Positions 3,188-50,975 of a DNA stretch of 51,212 bases are shown here, in pieces. This DNA is from an uncultured virus (IMG/VR IMGVR_UViG_2049941000_000254). Its lineage: Duplodnaviria > Heunggongvirae > Uroviricota > Caudoviricetes. The DNA is taken from the IMG/VR virus record IMGVR_UViG_2049941000_000254; one strand, given 5' to 3'. Numbering within the stretch: the first letter of the stretch is position 1; each line of letters starts with the position of its first letter. A program made the position numbers and the translations under genes. The notes beneath the pieces were generated by a model that was not told where the DNA came from, ran no database searches, and saw only the letters and a list, made by a program, of their open reading frames with translations.

Positions 3188-3272
3188 GGAGTTTCCTCCC
3201 TTCACTGAGTCTAATCAACTATGAGTCTGAGTTACCCCAAACTCACGGGTATTTAGCCCGTGGGTAGTTGAT
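3188..3272 (-). ncRNA. IscB omegaRNA (HEARO-like) 5' part, cut by a gap
   Basis: Reverse complement ATCAACTACCCACGGGCTAAATACCCGTGAGTTTGGGGTAACTCAGACTCATAGTTGATTAGACTCAGTGAAG is near-identical to 50710-50782, which precedes an IscB PLMP N-terminus. Confidence 0.85.
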
Positions 3273-3352
3273 CCGCCAGTATTTAGTCATTCCTGACGTG
3301 ACATTTGGCTCAGGAGCACCGGGAATGACCCGTACTCACATGCATGCAATAG

Positions 3353-3711
3353 TGGAGGTGAGGGGAGTCGAACCCCTGTCCTAAACGTCATTCCAGTTCA
3401 ACCGTATCACAATCCATCGTTTTGGGCCCTGTCCTGTTGCCCTGGGAGATGTATCCTTGAGGGGTCCTGATCCAGTATAAGATAGCCGATCTACGACCAG
3501 TAACTCACGGCTAAATTTGAGAGATATGCACTTGGTCCCCGGCTTTATTCCTCTCGCTTGGCCGGGGCAACGGCGTGCTACCGGTTAAGCAGCAGCGCTG
3601 TAGGCGAATGCATTGTCAGCATTTATTGTTTTAGTCCGTTTTTACGAAGCCACAGACCAACTTCGTGTGAGGTCTCCACGGTCTGATGCCCAGTCGAAAC
3701 CAAGCACCCCC
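3353..3711 (-). ncRNA. ssrA: tmRNA; tag ORF 3620-3585 encodes (A)ADNAFAYSAAA*
   Basis: 5' GGGGGUG pairs with 3' CACCUCC including the G3.U Ala determinant; GGUUUCGAC after the acceptor strand; T-arm AGGGGUUCGACUCCCCU; resume context AAUAAAU-GCU; tag ends in AAA; 359 nt. Confidence 0.95.
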
Positions 3712-3719
3712 AAAGAGCA

Positions 3720-3908
3720 TGGGGCTAGTTGTCTATCGCCCCAAGGAACCGATCGAATGAATATCCAGACAACTCATTCACCCAACCGGCGACATTCTAA
3801 GGAACAAGGGGAATCCCGATTCGCTACCCCTCATGGGTCGTCCTCCCGTAAGGGAGCCAAGCTACTAAAACCCATGGACCACTTAATTGATCGTCCAGAC
3901 TGTTCCTG
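3720..3908 (-). ncRNA. Unrecognised structured RNA(s) between tRNA-Pro and tmRNA
   Basis: Multi-branch unit closed by AGGAACA/UGUUCCU, then two hairpins with complementary loops (AGUUGUCU / AGACAACU). Confidence 0.6.
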
Positions 3909-3916
3909 TTTTGTAG

Positions 3917-3990
3917 TCGGAGTGACTGGATTTAAACCAGCGACCTCCGGATCCCAAATCCGGCGCTCTATCAGCCTGAGCTACACTCCG
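3917..3990 (-). tRNA. tRNA-Pro (UGG)
   Basis: Full cloverleaf: CGGAGUG/CACUCCG acceptor, GCUC/GAGC D stem, CCGGA-UUUGGGA-UCCGG anticodon arm, GCUGG-UUUAAAU-CCAGU T arm; CCA not encoded. Confidence 0.93.
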
Positions 3991-4413
3991 ATGTGCCCCT
4001 TTGCCTCACGGCGCCTTTGACGGCAAGATCTCCCAGAGGGGGCTGACTCTTCCTACTTCTACGATCGTCCCCTTCCCAACGTACTACGGTCAGTCCAGGA
4101 ACAACGCCCCAACCCAATGGGGCTTAGGTCGTTACGTCGGCGTACAGTTTGCACGCCCAGCACATGGGGAGAATACCCGGATCGCATGCGACCCTGTACT
4201 CTTTACTATCAAGACCATGCCATGTTTTGGTACGACGAGGAACTACGATGCCGCTGCAGGCGGCCACTTTTCAAACTTTTCGGCGGTACGGGCAGGTAAA
4301 ATCATAGGGGAGTTAACCACTTAAATACCCGTACCGCCGCTGCACAATTAAAACGCTTCCGAACTGTCAATCTTCTGATATGGCTCTCGGCCACATCGCC
4401 GTTCTTCCCGGCT
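3991..4413 (-). ncRNA. Unrecognised highly structured RNA region (~420 nt) at the head of the tRNA/tmRNA operon
   Basis: No credible minus-strand ORF; many stems with G.U pairs on the minus strand; begins at the predicted TSS. Confidence 0.6.
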
Positions 4414-4419
4414 GTCCTT

Positions 4420-4448
4420 AATGTAGCAAATTACATCGCGAATGTCAA
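4420..4448 (-). promoter_or_regulatory. Promoter of the ncRNA operon
   Basis: TTGACA-N17-TACATT with TGC extension; TSS ~4413. Confidence 0.8.
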
Positions 4449-4506
4449 CCAAAAAGAGCGAAATTTATTGCAGCTTATATTCTTTGTCAAGCTGCTNNNN
4501 NNNNNN

Positions 4507-5439
4507 AGCATGTTTTTCCACATACCCAAGCAAATCTTCCCATTCGACGATGCAAAGTTCGCTCAGACCCTTGGAGAGATCCGTCAAGTTTGACCAGAAC
4601 ATGCCTTCTGCATATTTGCACTCGTCCTTGAAATCCCAACGCAATGGCGCGACACATGGCCCATGCAAGAATACCTCGCCATGGCCATACTTATCCAGGG
4701 TAACGTCGTCGATACGCATTATCTTACTCCACTCAACATCGCCGTCATACCAGAAAACATACTTGCCTTTCAGACAGCCAGTGAGTACCCCAATAACCTG
4801 CTTCTCGATACCGTTATAGCTTTTGACAATCTCGGAAACATGCGCGGTGGCATCCGCGATGGTGTCGGTCAGCAGGGAGGTGAGGTCATCCTTTTTACCC
4901 CTGAGACCTTTGGCCACTTCCTGCATCTTCTTGTACACATCAAGGTCATATCGTACATTCACGGCATCCCAGTATTTCCTTATCATGTTGTCCACCATCG
5001 GGCCAAGGCGGTCATCCCCTATCACGGACGGCAACCTAACAAGTGCACCAAACAGTGCCTTGAACGCTGCCTTGTCTTCGGCATTCTGTTTGAGCGTGGC
5101 CGCAATTTCGTCGATGTATTTGAGGACGACCTCCACCAGCAGTTCGAACTCGAGTTGGCGTTCGGCTTCCATTGAATCCGTTTCTTCTCTTGCCCGTTTC
5201 AATGCATTGTCCACGTCAGCCTGCCGGTCACTATGGAGAGTAAGGACTTCATATTTCTTACGTTCTTCCCTGGTTTTCTGACAAAGAAGAGCAAGCAGGT
5301 AGTTAATGGCCGTACCACACCTTCCGATATAATGGTAGATTGACCGCTTAAACTCCTCCACGGTAAAATTGGAAAAGTCCACCTTGTAGTTTTCCGAGTA
5401 TGCTTCCTTGGCTTCTTTGAGGAATTGCTTTCCGTCCAT
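4507..5439 (-). CDS. Hypothetical protein, helical/coiled-coil N-half; C-terminus in gap
   Basis: Long ORF with coding-like composition. Confidence 0.75.
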
Positions 5440-8150: not shown

Positions 8151-8419
8151 GTCATACGTGCCCCGCGTTCTCGTACCCGAACATCTTGCGGAAGTCGTCA
8201 ACGGTTGCCGGGATAAGTGCGAGCGATATAGGTCCGCTTGCCGGGTATCCGTTGGCTATCGGCATCTTTCGCCAGTACTTGAGATATAGCCTGTAGATGG
8301 CCTTCTTTATTGGCAGCGTGTATGTCCTGTAGTAACCCGGCCCGTTCGAGCGCGCTGTGCAAAGGTCGAAGTAGGCGTTGCCGCCGCATGCAATGGTGTA
8401 GTTCCTGACNNNNNNNNNN

Positions 8420-9323
8420 GGTTGGCGTAAACGATACCGTCGCTCGTGATTGCGAGGTCCTTGACGCCGAAATCGACACCCACGATGTCCTGTTCCTCGA
8501 ACGAGGATATGGATTCATGGACTGGAACAATGTCGGCTACATAGGCGAAGGAGACATACCACTTACCAGCAGCATCAACGGAAACCGTAGCCATAGCGAG
8601 CGGTATCTTCTCGGAGTCCTTCGGTATCTTGATGTAGTCCTTCTCACGGAGCTTGATTCTACCGAGGGTAGGTATCTGAACGAAATCACGACCGATGAAC
8701 ACACCACCGGAGCAGCGGAACGAGTTATCCTGGTTGTAGCGGTGGAAGCGTGGGTGCTTGGCTAGACCCTTGAAGAANNNNNNNNNNCACATACCACTTA
8801 CCAGCTGCATCGACAGATACTGTCGCCATAGCAAGCGGTATCTTTTCAGAATCCTTCGGTATCTTGATGTAGTCCTTCTCACGGAGCTTGATTCTACCGA
8901 GTGTAGGTATCTGGACGAAATCACGACCGATGAACACACCACCGGAGCAGCGGAACGAGTTGTCTTGGCTATACTTGTGGAAGCGGGGGTGCTTGGCTTG
9001 ACCCTTGAAGAACCGCTTCCACGCAGCACCCAAATCTATCAAGGCTTCCTGTCCACAGAACTTGCTGACTTCGGTCATCCATCTGTTACGGGGTTCCTTC
9101 TTGAACCTGCACCAATCCCTGTGCCAATCAATCGGAGTGCCGAACTTGCACTTTACCTTCTCGTCTTCGGGCGTATTGGCTTTTGCTAATTCGTAAGCCT
9201 TGTTCTGTTCTGCGAGTTTCCAATTATAAGCACGGCGGGAAACGGCACACATGCGGTACATCGTCCGTACCTGTGCCTTGCTCGGCTTTAAGCATATCTT
9301 CCTTCCGCACTGCTGGTCCATAC
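8420..9323 (-). CDS. tnpB: Fragments of additional TnpB alleles (N-terminal HTH/wedge and RuvC-I)
   Basis: MDQQCGRKICLKPSKAQ... and VGVDFGVKDLA; overlapping near-duplicates separated by gaps. Confidence 0.8.
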
Positions 9324-9437
9324 NNNNNNNNNNAGCCTCGTTGCAGTTAATTGCCTTCTTTACGGGATCGTCCGGAAGCCACGTGGAGCATGGGTTCTTC
9401 CACACCGTCTGCTCCGGCTTCGGCGGNNNNNNNNNNA

Positions 9438-10602
9438 ACGCACTGGGCGTTGCCGTGGGGGCAAGCATTCGCAACGGAATTGTCGCTTACGGTGTATCTC
9501 ACCGCATTGGTTTCAGTCGGGACTACTAGGTTTAGTAGCCACAGGCCATAGAACTGCAAGTTCCTGGCTGCATTGTAATCTCTGTCGTGGTGATGCCCGC
9601 ATACGGGGCATACCCATTCCCTATCATCCAGGGTCAAATCCTTGTTGTAGTATTGCCCACAGTGCGAGCAGTAACGGCTAGAAGCGTAGAACTGCGGGGC
9701 GAAGAATAGCAGTATGCCTAGCCAAGCACACTTATACTCCAGGAACTGTCGCATCCTTCCGAAGTTGGCATCGAGGATAGCGGAAGCCAGCTTGTGGTTC
9801 TTATACATGTTTTTCGGCTTCAAGTCCTCAATAACGATAGCCTTCGGCTTCGTATGCTTCGTAATGTCAGCAGTGAACTGGTGAGCCGCATTGACTCGGA
9901 TGTTGGTTATCCTTCTGTGGATTCTACCAAGTATCCTCTTGCACCGCTCCCTGTTCTTGGAGTGTTTTTTCTTGCGGGATAAAGCTCTCTGGAATCTGCG
10001 TAGCCTAGCCTTGGCATGCTGGTAGGCTTTCGGGTTGGCGTAAACGATACCGTCGCTCGTGATTGCAAGGTCCTTGACTCCAAAATCGACACCCACTATG
10101 TCCTGTTCCTCGAACGAGGATATGGATTCGTGGACTGGAACGATGTCGGCTACATAGGCGAAGGAAACATACCACTTGCCAACAGCATCGACCGATACGG
10201 TCGCCATTGCAAGCGGTATCTTCTCGGAATCCTTCGGTATCTTGATGTAGTCCTTCTCTCGGAGCTTGATTCTACCAAGCGTANNNNNNNNNNACGCTTC
10301 CATGCGGAACCGAGGTCGATTAGGGCTTCTTGACCGCAGAACTTGGAGACTTCCGTCATCCACTTGTTATCGGACAGTTTCTTGAAGATGCACCATTCCT
10401 TGTGCCAATCTCTCGGTGTACCGAGGGTGCATTTGACCTTCTCGCCTTCCGGTGTGTTGGCCTTGGCTTCCTCGTAAGCCTTGTTCTGCTCGGCTAGTTT
10501 CCAGTTGTAGGCACGGCGGGAAACGGCACACATACGGTACATCGTCCGCACCTGTGCCTTGCTCGGCTTCAAGCATATCTTCCTTCCGCACTGCTGTTCC
10601 AT
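9438..10602 (-). CDS. tnpB: TnpB RNA-guided nuclease (spans gap 10284-10293; C-terminal tail continues at ~7665-7758)
   Basis: RuvC D (GVDFG), E (VIEDL) and D (DRDYNAA) intact; Zn finger CSHC...CPVC. Confidence 0.9.
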
Positions 10603-17082: not shown

Positions 17083-17300
17083 GCAGATACCCTTCTTCTT
17101 GTCCGATAACTCATTTCTATGAATTTCTATGAATGATAGCAAAAGTTGCATATTATGTCAAGGAGTTCATAGAGCTGAGTTCTTGCTTCATAGCCCGGCA
17201 CGATTCATCCGCTAGGAAGAATTGCAACCTCCGGTCTCTGGGGCTGACAAAAGTCACGCCTTCCTTCTGATATACAGAAGGGCAAGCATCGGCGGAACAA
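17083..17300 (-). ncRNA. TnpB omegaRNA/reRNA overlapping the tnpB 3' end; predicted guide ACAAGAAGAAGGGUAUCUGC (17102-17083); 5' boundary approximate
   Basis: GAGGTTGCA.TTCTT...GTGC.....ATGAAGCAAGAA conserved with 7700-7758; known TnpB guide geometry. Confidence 0.65.
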
Positions 17301-18517
17301 CCGCCTACGGCTAATCGCGCCGCAACATTTTCGTCGGTCTGGACGAGTCCAGCCAACCACTGTCCGTAGAATTTGAGGTTGACCGCCGCATTAGCGTCAC
17401 GGTCATGGTGACAGCCACATACCGGGCATGTCCATTCACGGTCAGCGAGAGTTAAATTGTCATTATGATAGCATCCGCAGTGCGAGCAGTAACGACTACT
17501 TGCATAGAACTGAGGAGCAAATATGAGCTTGATGCCAAGCCATTGACACTTGTATTTAAGAAATTCCTTGATTCTGCCGAAATTGGCATCTAGGATACTG
17601 GATGCAAGATTGTGATTCTTCGCCATATTACCGGGTCGAAGAGTCTCCATCACAATCATCTTTGGCTTCAACTTGTAGGTCAGGTCGGAAGTCATCTGGT
17701 GAGCATGGTTCACTCGGATACAGGTGACCTTGTGCCAAGCCTTTGCCAACCGCTTCCTAGCCTTCTTGCGGTTCTTTGACTTCTTGTGTTTCCTAGATAC
17801 CGCCTTCTGCAATCGATTGATGCGAGTTATATAGCGTCGGTATGCTTTCGGATTGGAATAGACAATGCCGCTAGAAGTGATTCCAGAATCCTTCACGCCG
17901 AGGTCGATACCCTCGATGTCATCGGAAGCAATTTCGGTATCTGGCGAATAAAGTGGTTCTACATCGACATGGTAGGCGAACGACACCGACCAGTGACCCG
18001 TAGGGTCTACCGATACGGTAGCCATCGCAATAGGCGTCTTCTCCACGCCGTCCGGTATCTTTATGTAATCCTTCTCGGCTAGACGGACACGACCGAGCGT
18101 GGGGAGCTGGACGAAATCACGACCGATGAATACACCGCCCGAACACCGGAATGATTCGTCTACGCCGTACTTATGGAACCGTGGATGCTTGGCTAGACCC
18201 TTGAAGAATCGCTTCCAGGCGGAACCGAGGTCGATAAGTGCCTCCTGACCGCAGAACTTGGAAACTTCCGTCATCCATTTGTTCTCCGGTAGCTTTTTAT
18301 GGATGCACCATTCCTTATGCCAGTCGATGGGCGTACCGAGCTTGCACTTGACCTTCTCGCCTTCTGGTGTGTTCTTCTTGGCTTCCTCGTAGGCTTGATT
18401 CTGGACAGCGAGCTTCCAGTTGTATGCACGACGAGAGACAGCGCACATACGGTACATCGTCCGTATCTGAGCCTTAGTCGGCAGTAAGCCTATCTTTCGT
18501 CCGCACTGTTGTTCCAT
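17153..18517 (-). CDS. tnpB: TnpB RNA-guided nuclease, 454 aa, complete
   Basis: HTH N-terminus; GIDLGVK / VMETL / DRDANAA catalytic D-E-D; Zn finger. Confidence 0.95.
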   Translation of the reverse strand: MEQQCGRKIGLLPTKAQIRTMYRMCAVSRRAYNWKLAVQNQAYEEAKKNTPEGEKVKCKLGTPIDWHKEWCIHKKLPENKWMTEVSKFCGQEALIDLGSAWKRFFKGLAKHPRFHKYGVDESFRCSGGVFIGRDFVQLPTLGRVRLAEKDYIKIPDGVEKTPIAMATVSVDPTGHWSVSFAYHVDVEPLYSPDTEIASDDIEGIDLGVKDSGITSSGIVYSNPKAYRRYITRINRLQKAVSRKHKKSKNRKKARKRLAKAWHKVTCIRVNHAHQMTSDLTYKLKPKMIVMETLRPGNMAKNHNLASSILDANFGRIKEFLKYKCQWLGIKLIFAPQFYASSRYCSHCGCYHNDNLTLADREWTCPVCGCHHDRDANAAVNLKFYGQWLAGLVQTDENVAARLAVGGCSADACPSVYQKEGVTFVSPRDRRLQFFLADESCRAMKQELSSMNSLT

Positions 18518-18525
18518 ACAAAAAG

Positions 18526-18620
18526 AGACGCCTCGCAAGGAACTAAATCGCCATTCATTTCCTCACAAGGCATCTAAAGGTTTCTTTCGGTTCTACCGGA
18601 GAATGGCGATAATCCGGTAG
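18526..18620 (-). promoter_or_regulatory. Kissing-loop 5' leader RNA of tnpB (element 2)
   Basis: 8-bp hairpin with loop UUAUCGCCAUUC; 17-bp hairpin (4 G.U) with loop containing GAAUGGCGAU; 10-nt complementarity; own promoter TTGCAA-N17-TATATT at 18661-18633. Confidence 0.75.
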
Positions 18621-19474: not shown

Positions 19475-20131
19475 TTATACTTTTGCCCCAGCATCGGCTG
19501 ACTTCTTTTCGGCTCGTTTCTTCCTGTTCTCCTTACCTCGTTTGCTGTACAGCTTGGCAGAGAATACAGCAATCAGTGATAGCATATCCTTTACCAAGTC
19601 AGCCTCGAACGACTCACTCAGCACGGATTCGACATACTCCACCTCGACGCCATGTGACCGGAAGTATTCCACAACCAGCTTGAAGTTGAACCTCGTAAGG
19701 CGGTCGTAATGCTCGATGACAACCTTATCGAACTTGTGTTCGCAAGCCAGTCGCATCATCTGCAACAGCTTCTTTCGGTTGTCATTCAAGCCGCTACCGA
19801 CCTCCTCGAATACATACTCAACTGCGTACTTCTTCTCAGCACAGTATTCTAGCAACCGGAGCTTCTGTCGGTCTAGGTCGCCATGCGACTTCTGGTCGGA
19901 AGTGGATACACGGCAATACACCGCTACTCGGTTGCCCTTACTGGCTGTGTTGGTCTGGTCTGGTTTGATTTCTCCGAGGTAAGCTCTGAGTTCGTCCTCG
20001 TCCCAGCGTCGGTTTCCCTTTTCGCTGGCACGGTAGGCGGTCAGTTTGCCTTCCTCCGTCCATCTGCGTAGCGTGTCTGGGCAACAGCCCAGAATCTCAC
20101 ACGCCTTCTTCGTTCTTACTTTCTTGCCCAT
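19475..20131 (-). CDS. tnpA: IS607 TnpA serine recombinase (MerR-like HTH plus resolvase domain)
   Basis: ACEILGCCPDTLRRW..EGKL; VYCRVSTSDQ; EEVGSGLN; HYDRLTRF; DMLSLIAVFSAKLY. Confidence 0.95.
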   Translation of the reverse strand: MGKKVRTKKACEILGCCPDTLRRWTEEGKLTAYRASEKGNRRWDEDELRAYLGEIKPDQTNTASKGNRVAVYCRVSTSDQKSHGDLDRQKLRLLEYCAEKKYAVEYVFEEVGSGLNDNRKKLLQMMRLACEHKFDKVVIEHYDRLTRFNFKLVVEYFRSHGVEVEYVESVLSESFEADLVKDMLSLIAVFSAKLYSKRGKENRKKRAEKKSADAGAKV

Positions 20132-20291
20132 TCTCAACCTCTATTCCGAGCATATCGGCACTGCGGTCGAGCATCGTCTGGAACTCTTCCAGGGTAGGCA
20201 AGGGGTCGATGTCGAACATCATGGGCTGGATAGTTCCGTCCTCAAGTTCGAACTCTTCCTTGGTGATGCGTACTACTTTCATGCGTTTCAT
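20097..20291 (-). CDS. Small acidic ORF inside the left end of IS607 element 2
   Basis: AAGGAG SD and TATAAACT upstream; overlaps the tnpA start. Confidence 0.6.
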   Translation of the reverse strand: MKRMKVVRITKEEFELEDGTIQPMMFDIDPLPTLEEFQTMLDRSADMLGIEVENGQESKNEEGV

Positions 20292-47665: not shown

Positions 47666-47720
47666 AAATGTATGCAGTGCGGAAACTCACCCATCTTTAG
47701 TGGGTATGAGGAGCGCTGCT
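47666..47720 (-). mobile_element. 3' end of the IscB IS200/605 element, followed by ATGAAA (candidate TAM)
   Basis: Hairpin CTCATACCCACTAAAGATGGGTGAG then TTTCCGC..., typical of IscB ends. Confidence 0.55.
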
Positions 47721-48834
47721 TCCTCCATAATGTAGGTGTTGTTGTGATGTTTTAGGGTCAGCTTCTTGTAACTGACCGAATCTGCTAGAACTTTTCCGGT
47801 GATATCAGCAACCGAAAACGATCCCGACATCCTACGTCCGCTCAGAAAGCACTCCCTGTATGCATACCTGACGGAATCCATCAGCCGGAATCCCCTTACT
47901 TCACGTGGTGCCTGGTTGTTTCTACGCTTGCCGCCCCGAAGAATGGTTGCATGGTGCAGTTGCCTGTTGTTCACATGCAACTTGCGGATAATCCAGTACT
48001 TGCCATCTGAACATGCACACGGATTGCCGCTGATGCAGCGGGCATCTATCACATGTTCCTTCGGAAGTCCATGGCTAGTGCGGGTATGTTTGGTGATGTA
48101 ACCATATGTATCGTAACAAGGAATTACCTCACCGATTTCCTCCTTCAGCCTGTTGAATAGCGCTTTCCGCATGATACCCATCTGTGCCGCGTCACGCAGC
48201 GATGTACCACGTCTTGCAGTCTTCGACAGATCGATTTCTCCACGGTGGTACTTAGCATGGCATTCCGAGCACAACGTGATAATGTTGTTAGGTGCATCAC
48301 CGCCTGTCTTCCGACTCTCGATGTGGTGGACATGCAGCTTCTTGTCCTTGGACTTTCCCTTGCAGCACTGGCATTTGTGCCCGTCTCGACACAGCACGTA
48401 TTCCCGCACATTAGAGAATCCGAGCTGTTCGCCCTTCTGGTAGTCGGTACCCTGAGGCAACGGAAGCCCCTGTGTCTGGGCCTTCAACAGCTGGGTATCG
48501 AACTGCGCAGTTTCCACCGTTATCTTCTTGATAGGCAAGAACTTGCAGATTCTCGAAATCCAGTGGATATGACAATCCACCTTCTGTCTTACGGAAGGTG
48601 CAATCCATCCCGGCTTCTTGGACCCAGTCCTGTTCAGGAACCGAGGCTTGCGGTAGCGAGTTTTCCTGTTCCTTCTGGTCCGACGGAACTCCCTTCGTGC
48701 AGCCAGCTTGGCTACGATATCCGACCTCAGCAATAATTCTGCTTCGAAAAGTACCTTCTTCTTGGTAGTCGCGGAAAAGCCTACATGCTTCGTACCCGCG
48801 TCTACGCCTAGACTGACCCCCTGGACGCCGTTTG
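47687..48834 (-). CDS. iscB: IscB RNA-guided nuclease (N-terminus in gap)
   Basis: RuvC-I GVDAGTK, Arg-rich bridge RREFRRTRRNRKTRYRKPRF, RuvC-II VETAQFD, HNH HVHHIESR...NIITLCSECH, RuvC-III HVIDA. Confidence 0.95.
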
Positions 48835-50709: not shown

Positions 50710-50975
50710 ATCAACTACCCACGGGCTAAAGACCCGTGAGTTTGGGGTAACCCGGACTCATAGTTGATTAGACTCAGTGAAGCATAGCAATATGCTGAAC
50801 TACGTTAGGAAGGCCATAACACCTACGGATGTACGGTCAAGTCTGTAGCTCTGTTGAATGTCATTAAACAGTCCTGATGGGTAGGGACAGTGTGGCGTTC
50901 ACGACAAGCCTCCCTAACATTGTCGATGACCACCCACAGGGAGCAATCCCTGCATTACCTATTAAGTTAGGTTCA
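50710..50975 (+). ncRNA. IscB omegaRNA (HEARO-like); guide is the flank ~50692-50709
   Basis: ATCAACTACCC...GTTGATTAGACTCAG...CTACGTT...CACCTACGGATG...AGTCTGTAGCTCTG...AACATTGTCGATG, directly upstream of the iscB ATG. Confidence 0.9.

Follow-up and report, generated by a model that had tools for sequence, protein, structure and literature searches.

On the minus strand of the window, by which we mean the whole 51,212-nt stretch of viral DNA analysed here (IMG/VR IMGVR_UViG_2049941000_000254), a predicted promoter is followed by a 423-nt RNA, tRNA-Pro(UGG), a 204-nt spacer and a tmRNA, in that order. The features of this stable-RNA operon are as follows.

4420..4448, minus strand: predicted sigma-70-type promoter (−35 TTGACA at 4448–4443, 17-nt spacer, TG-extended −10 TACATT at 4425–4420)
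3991..4413, minus strand: structured non-coding RNA, long form, 423 nt, without a gene call and without an Rfam match
3916..3990, minus strand: tRNA-Pro(UGG) (ARAGORN; Rfam, 64.5 bits)
3712..3915, minus strand: spacer of 204 nt, outside the conserved RNA (fold z −1.0)
3350..3711, minus strand: tmRNA with tag ADNAFAYSAAA, the last gene of the operon (ARAGORN; Rfam, 99.2 bits)

The surrounding DNA is mobile-element-rich, phage-like and mostly unannotatable, with RecT, several TnpB, an IS607-type recombinase, an IscB-like protein and a HEARO RNA. The contigs related to it come from IMG/VR viral records and measure 203–355 kb, and the public runs that contain the stretch are mostly labelled bovine gut metagenome. 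Fifty masked runs of N (2075 bases in all) break many frames, including that of the upstream gene at 4497–4506, and the gene calls in the window are incomplete.

The initial annotation had described 4448–4420 as a consensus promoter, a description that the comparison bears out. The pattern formed by TTGACA, a 17-nt spacer and the TG-extended TACATT has a single exact occurrence in 51 kb, where 0.03 would be expected by chance, and the −35 and extended −10 are retained in 6/6 homologues (as TTGCCA for the −35 of L027, in which the spacer has diverged). Two hexamers at 17 ± 1 nt that are kept while the spacer varies mark the site as a predicted promoter, from which transcription would start near 4413. 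Directly upstream of the −35, at 4449–4460 on the minus strand, every homologue conserves CGCUCUUUUUGG. This sequence is similar to the boxA core, CGCUCUU, of lambdoid nut sites, but may be no more than an UP element; only if transcription entered from upstream would it be present in the RNA.

The gene upstream of the operon (4465–5439, minus strand) encodes a 324-aa protein for which neither Pfam nor PHROG gives a match. With the IMG/VR contig of locus L001 it shares no more than its first 106 residues, and with the genes that lie upstream of the RNA in L004, L012 and L027 no more than its last few codons (YKLQ stop); from these partial matches it looks like a mosaic gene. A search of viral contigs with the protein returned the relatives L001 and L002, both of which lack the 423-nt RNA. 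In L001, an array of 13 tRNAs lies ~660 nt downstream of the start of the upstream-gene homologue, after two small ORFs. SmpB was found in 0/5 phage records.

The spacer at 3712–3915 is 91% identical in L005, partly alignable in L011 and unalignable in L004 and L012; in these last three, identity is 47–73% over the aligned letters, with 118–243 gapped positions. At 3200–3273 (minus strand), just past the tmRNA, the initial part of the HEARO RNA is repeated over 74 nt at 96% identity; in L004, L011 and L012 this HEARO-derived piece lies between tRNA-Pro and tmRNA instead. Because its position differs in this way, the operon has been rearranged around it. The full HEARO RNA, of the IscB guide type (131.5 bits), is at 50710–50937 on the plus strand, near the window end, and a partner gene downstream of it, if any, would run off the window; a frame with RRXRR and HNH domains (IscB-like; 47687–48733, minus strand) lies 2 kb away on the opposite strand. 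Several TnpB-type transposase frames, some of them split by masked stretches or frame changes, and the IS607-type serine recombinase are found at 8307–10363, 17153–18538 and 19475–20137 (minus strand). Together they make up an IS200/605–607 load that is unusually dense for a phage stretch. Finally, tRNA-Pro(UGG) occurs as three alleles among the homologues, 76–81% identical, whose anticodon and T stems carry compensatory changes; the presence of such alleles beside a nearly invariant RNA suggests exchange of alleles by recombination.

Conservation of the RNA and fate of its reading frames

An exact search with a 19-nt hairpin of the RNA, H (placed in the fold below), returned the viral contig L004 and the metagenome contigs L005, L009, L011 and L012, along with chance matches. 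A more diverged viral copy, L027, was reached through one of 12 'proteins' from other contigs that a protein-database search with an antisense frame had returned. The homologues, all from rumen phage or metagenome contigs, number five full-length copies (L004, L005, L011, L012 and L027) and one partial copy (L009). Three other contigs (L008, L010 and L013) are GC-rich, lack a tRNA and have nothing but the H 19-mer in common with the window, and these were taken as chance. The sole H match in the genome collection, L014 (an Isosphaeraceae MAG), gave no match to R1, the covariance model of the 3′ terminal domain described below, and further exact patterns returned only contigs already found. A blastn search against 50,697 phage records matched tRNA-Pro only; T4-type phages match tRNA-Pro alone. 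Identity to the window, region by region, is as follows.

3′ 270 nt of the RNA: 259/268 to 267/270 in L004, L005, L011 and L012; 247/269 in L027
5′ 153 nt of the RNA: 136/152 to 149/153 in L004, L005, L011 and L012; 112/138 in L027
tRNA-Pro: 57–61 of 75 in L004, L005, L011 and L012; 61/75 in L027
tmRNA: 291/360 to 320/362 in L004, L005 and L012 (L011 too short); 291/361 in L027
Upstream gene: 698/826 in L011 and 731/823 in L005; unalignable in L004, L012 and L027

In the same pairs of sequences, therefore, identity is 92–99% over the 3′ 270 nt of the RNA, 76–81% over the tRNA and 81–88% over the tmRNA. Between the window and L005, the leader is identical at 416/423 positions, as against 320/362 for the tmRNA and 731/823 for the upstream gene (Fisher p = 7e-9 and 8e-11, respectively); between the window and L027, the 3′ core is identical at 247/269 positions, as against 291/361 for the tmRNA (p = 6e-5). 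Across six sequences, 90/106 unpaired and 154/172 paired positions of the core are invariant. Because unpaired core positions are conserved like paired ones, selection acts on the sequence as well as on the pairing. Conservation is graded by domain, a pattern that a simple block of recent transfer does not fit.

The initial annotation had named two antisense frames, 4001–4324 and 4117–4299, whose conservation as coding sequence would speak against an RNA; we looked for it, and neither frame is conserved. The 107-aa frame at 4001–4324 is whole in the window only (1/6 copies), and the 60-aa frame at 4117–4299 is whole only in the window and L005 (2/6 copies). A 47-aa sense frame (4267–4124) survives in the near-identical copies and is frameshifted in L027 and, at its C terminus, in L004. 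Single-base indels are dispersed across the alignment of homologues and break the frames, and no frame of 3991–4413 is kept open and in frame across the homologues. Moreover, among the 12 database 'proteins' returned by the antisense frame, the frame changes from contig to contig.

Two metatranscriptome contigs from different studies match the RNA: X15 (536 nt, depth 65) covers 3987–4495, and X20 (255 nt, depth 13.9) covers 3998–4252. X15 spans the promoter and about 50 nt beyond, and so extends upstream past the predicted start by at least 82 nt (4414–4495); its ends coincide with the points at which homologues diverge and may be assembly breaks. In RNA run X16 the window's tmRNA is present and the leader has no cover, and RNA runs give no cover of 3718–3981; strain divergence and the 85% threshold can explain both observations. 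One DNA run covers everything. Such contigs carry no strand and no true RNA ends, and DNA carry-over in RNA libraries is possible; X15 and X20 represent presence in RNA libraries, no more.

Consensus fold and modular family

A consensus structure was computed with RNAalifold from six sequences and comprises 117 pairs in 19 helices. It pairs 234/423 nucleotides, and the earlier description of the RNA as paired almost end to end was overstated. The single-sequence fold of the minus strand (−158.1 kcal/mol, z −2.06, with 2/100 shuffles equally good) is modestly above chance, whereas that of the plus strand is weaker (−129.9, z −0.70). These z-scores and the count of G.U pairs favour the minus strand; 13/117 consensus pairs are G.U in the window, which fits the initial claim that such pairs favour this strand. 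The main elements are listed from 5′ to 3′.

4269..4413, minus strand: 5′ domain, less conserved (81–98% identity to homologues)
4412–4398 and 4397–4377, minus strand: 5′-domain hairpins (consensus fold)
4339–4326 / 4294–4281, minus strand: 14-bp hairpin with a variable loop (helix 5; covariation)
3991..4268, minus strand: 3′ core, highly conserved (247/269 to 267/270 identical to homologues)
4243..4249, minus strand: first AUCGUAG motif, read from the sequence; putative 5′ edge of the central part exchanged between forms
4170..4202, minus strand: nested hairpin AGAGUAC/GUAUUCU around GGGUCG-CAUG-CGAUCC (helix 11; covariation)
4139..4157, minus strand: hairpin H, GGCGUGCAAACUGUACGCC, the family signature; exact 19-mer in window-type and L003-type loci
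3993..4065, minus strand: 3′ terminal domain, which begins with the second AUCGUAG (4065–4059)

Eight of the nine stems proposed earlier recur in this consensus: GCCG/CGGC, GAUGUGGC/GCCAUAUC, GCCGC/GCGGC, GGCGUGCA/UGUACGCC, CAUGG/CCAUG enclosing AGAGUAC/GUAUUCU, GCCCC/GGGGC (4123–4106), the long-range UUCCUC/GUAGGA and the terminal GCCCC/GGGGC (4043–3995). The ninth, CCGACGUA/UACGUUGG, is absent; it shares 2 nt with the GGCGUGCA hairpin and is in competition with two further helices. The terminal helix (4043–4039 / 3999–3995) had been described as a junction abutting the tRNA. It is part of the consensus and ends 4 nt before the tRNA, which begins at 3990. It encloses three small hairpins, one of which has a GNRA loop (GUGA, 4009–4006) that is GUGA or GCGA among the homologues.

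When only the five near-identical copies are considered, covariation is not significant (185/500 shuffles). With L027 added, five pairs in two helices are changed on both sides. In this six-sequence alignment 99.1% of 702 cells are paired, compared with 34–42% in slid controls, and 0/500 shuffles reached the observed value on four of five measures, figures to be read with the structure derived from the same alignment and most of the signal coming from one diverged sequence, L027. In the 14-bp helix, two pairs are changed on both sides and a third pair has three pair types in L027, in which the hairpin loop has been replaced outright. In the nested hairpin at 4170–4202, three pairs are changed on both sides and four more on one side, and all are still paired except for one cell. 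The other helices have one-sided, pair-keeping changes or none. Variants of H in L027 and L026 preserve its pairing.

H also occurs in a different RNA, of ~200 nt, which directly precedes tRNA-Thr(UGU) in L003, L006 and L007 (L006 is identical to L003 over this short-form stretch), and a variant of H precedes tRNA-Glu(CUC) in L026. A plain alignment of the long and short forms found nothing in common beyond H. R1, a 73-nt covariance model of the window-type 3′ terminal domain only, without H, nevertheless matched L007 (29.7 bits, E 7e-6) and L003 (27.0 bits, E 4e-5) over its full length and directly upstream of tRNA-Thr, whereas the best unrelated match in 54 kb scored 10.6 bits; in L026 it scored 9.2 bits at the expected place, which is not significant. 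In the model-fitted alignment of the two forms, 4/5 pairs of the terminal helix are compensatory, and in both forms this helix surrounds a UCUGGG(G)AGAU core with a GNRA hairpin. The order of elements, read by eye, is also the same in both forms: AUCGUAG, a hairpin, H, AUCGUAG, the terminal helix, 4–5 nt and the tRNA. The motif appears as AUCGUAG or AUCGUAU in L003, L007 and L026, and the antisense frames of the short form suggest that its first copy marks a module boundary. Because R1 finds the short form and H is common to both, and with the elements found in one order in each, we regard the long and short forms as one modular family. From translations only, we infer a possible third arrangement in P0014–P0017, four of the antisense 'proteins', in which window-type ends would flank a short-form-like centre with a variant of H.

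Each phage record in which the RNA was found has one copy, of the long form in G002 and G006 and of the short form in G001 (93% complete) and G005. Neither form was found in G003 or G004, there are no paralogues in G001–G006, and the 13-tRNA array of G002 has no such leader. A search with a tmRNA pattern led to L024, a jumbo-phage contig with the same tmRNA type and a dissimilar leader of about 260 nt before tRNA-Thr(CGU). The non-coding stretch before that tRNA (1904–2277, about 370 nt) contains two diverged tandem copies of a ~75-nt unit, a promoter-like site, TTGACATT, and CGUAG and AUCGUAU motifs; R1 gave no match on L024.

A candidate trans-acting RNA and its relation to known systems

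The initial annotation had proposed an undescribed structured non-coding RNA at the head of a phage stable-RNA operon, and both parts of this proposal are supported. The RNA keeps no reading frame among the homologues and has diverged less than the tRNA and tmRNA beside it; two helices have compensatory changes, and contigs from RNA libraries contain it. None of the 4227 models of Rfam 15, GOLLD, ROOL, RNase P RNA and 6S among them, matched 3991–4413, either at gathering thresholds or, with permissive filters, at E ≤ 10, whether the query was 1401 nt or just 436 nt (3985–4420, both strands). For tRNA, tmRNA, RNase P RNA, 6S, SRP RNA, known ribozymes and riboswitches, there were 0 matches at E ≤ 10 in 3985–4420, and a plus-strand match to RNase MRP (11.2 bits) was set aside as noise. 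On the best reading, the locus is a genuine RNA gene that belongs to a new family in cattle-rumen jumbo phages, although 3991–4413 may hold several non-coding RNAs rather than one. Literature searches, most of them not aimed at this RNA and one aimed at the T4 RNAs, returned no description of it, and the H string is absent from the searched part of the Fremin 2023 supplements.

The reading that we prefer, and to which we give about an even chance, is that of a new, stable, structured phage RNA that acts in trans and is released by RNase P at the tRNA that follows it. Host RNA polymerase would start near 4413, and the RNA would be made early in infection along with the phage tRNA and tmRNA. RNase P should cut any accessible pre-tRNA, and for this reason it would be expected to cut at the 5′ end of tRNA-Pro (3991|3990) and release the RNA. 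The new 3′ end would be tucked behind the terminal GCCCC/GGGGC helix, 4 nt away, and the released RNA could then persist and act in trans as a folded RNA or an RNA–protein particle.

The strongest competing explanation, which we consider possible and about half as probable, is that the RNA is a cis-acting operon leader that serves its own transcript and is then discarded. It might guide folding and processing of the tRNA–tmRNA precursor, protect the 5′ end or keep RNA polymerase from terminating on an untranslated transcript, in the manner of rRNA leaders and of phage nut or put sites. In every case the RNA has a promoter or upstream gene on one side and the first tRNA of its unit on the other, as a leader would, and H is identical in otherwise dissimilar leaders, in which it resembles the boxB hairpins of lambdoid nut sites. 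However, the RNA was never found more than once in a phage record and is absent from the array of 13 tRNAs in G002; the genes downstream differ (Pro and tmRNA, Thr then an ORF, or Glu); and conservation of the core exceeds that of the tmRNA, unpaired positions included. A trans-acting RNA is preferred to a leader in cis because its copies number one for each genome and not one for each tRNA unit, because the downstream genes vary and because the constraint on the core sequence is tighter than that on the tmRNA. The depths of the RNA-library contigs are comparable to that of the tmRNA, a weak measure that also disfavours a discarded leader, and pairing of the two ends of the operon is not conserved. 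A closing stem like that of rRNA operons, 8–12 bp in the window (4412–4405 with 3325–3318), was rejected for this reason: L005 lacks one of its pairs, L012 has a disrupted helix and L004 has no trailer segment. Likewise rejected was a pairing between an arm of H and the tmRNA (3585–3572), which is not conserved in other tmRNAs. By eye, no enrichment of GGA motifs or of anti-Shine–Dalgarno-like stretches was apparent in the RNA.

It is improbable that the RNA does its work while still attached to its tRNA. All full-length members (9/9) end 4–5 nt before a tRNA, which the terminal helix abuts, and the linker of GOLLD holds tRNAs (Kretsch et al., bioRxiv 10.1101/2024.12.08.627333), so that a tRNA-carrying molecule would have a model among the GOLLD members. 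Against this, the identity of the tRNA varies (Pro, Thr or Glu), the tRNA-Pro alleles drift to 76–81% identity while the RNA stays at 92–99%, and the same cleavage by RNase P that would release the RNA would separate the two. The related suggestion in the initial annotation, of one large RNA with an embedded tRNA, is not supported: the spacer past the tRNA is unalignable in L004 and L012, and there is no leader–spacer pairing of at least 10 nt.

Slightly less probable again is that the stretch has no function at the RNA level and consists of decayed tRNA genes or of a recently spread DNA cassette of promoter and filler. In favour are the array of 13 tRNAs in L001, ~660 nt past the start of the upstream-gene homologue, the exchange of the central part between forms and the different flanking genes of L004 and L012. 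However, the leader contains no tRNA-like match at E ≤ 10, its conservation is graded by domain with no sharp block, substitutions keep the helices, and two forms that differ almost everywhere nevertheless retain the terminal helix, H and the order of motifs. The weakest alternative, that 3991–4413 codes for a small protein, is very improbable: the 47-aa sense frame is open in 5/6 copies and 3/5 of its substitutions are synonymous, but it has no visible ribosome-binding site and is frameshifted as described above, the antisense frames are intact in one or two copies, and the strongest conservation (4065–3991) lies outside every shared frame.

Large, intricately folded RNAs of bacteria and phages are rare, and those that have been studied are ribozymes, guide RNAs or, in the case of GOLLD and ROOL, self-assembling cages of open purpose. 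The new family, unrelated to those two in sequence, offers an independent case in which to ask why phages place big structured RNAs beside tRNAs. At the nucleotide level it is better conserved than the tmRNA of its operon, which points to contacts that constrain the sequence and not the pairing alone. The family also lends itself to experiment: its core is of a size that can be transcribed and imaged, the ~200-nt short form is a natural comparison, and the invariant 19-nt hairpin H could be used as bait for partners.

Several known systems resemble the trans-acting RNA proposed here in part. The stable RNAs C and D (species 1 and 2) of the T4 tRNA cluster are small RNAs of unknown function, about 120–140 nt, that are co-transcribed with phage tRNAs and released by tRNA-processing enzymes. 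They have no sequence likeness to the 423-nt RNA, and they lie at the far end of their cluster whereas it lies at the head of its operon. In the eukaryotic MALAT1/mascRNA system, the 3′ end of a long non-coding RNA is made by RNase P at the tRNA-like fold that follows. The phage RNA would share with it an RNase P-made 3′ end and a terminal helix near that end, but here a true tRNA is downstream. A bacterial Y RNA of the YrlA type is unlikely, with no Rfam match and TROVE (Ro60) in 0/5 phage records, whereas control genomes matched.

The closest parallels are ROOL and GOLLD. ROOL, a large RNA of many helices, was first found in cow-rumen metagenomes (PMC5737381) and is described as occurring in phages and prophages, often beside tRNAs, with function unknown (PMC5737381; bioRxiv 10.1101/2024.12.08.627333). 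The 423-nt RNA is similarly of phage and rumen origin and directly precedes tRNA-Pro in jumbo-phage contigs. However, ROOL averages 581 nt, and the ROOL model (RF03087; gathering score, 99.1 bits) gave no match at E ≤ 10 on 1401 or 436 nt, nor did it match in five related phage records; control genomes likewise gave none. GOLLD is described as having a conserved 3′ half and a variable 5′ half (PMC5737381; bioRxiv 10.1101/2024.12.08.627333), and the 423-nt RNA has the same asymmetry and also lies beside phage tRNAs; there is no Rfam match, and GOLLD is usually over 800 nt, about twice its length. In context and build, with a conserved 3′ part, a variable 5′ part and phage tRNAs alongside, the RNA resembles GOLLD and ROOL while belonging to neither; judged by its sequence, it is a new family among the large structured phage RNAs that lie beside tRNAs. 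More tentatively, it may, next to GOLLD and ROOL, stand for a third class among the large ornate RNAs of phages: a modular RNA-only or RNA–protein particle of rumen jumbo phages. Such a particle would rely on its built-in tRNA to signal 3′-end processing, reserve a nearly invariant 270-nt core for contacts with some conserved machine of the cell (the ribosome and the tRNA-processing apparatus are candidates) and swap its central module between phages by recombination at the two AUCGUAG motifs.
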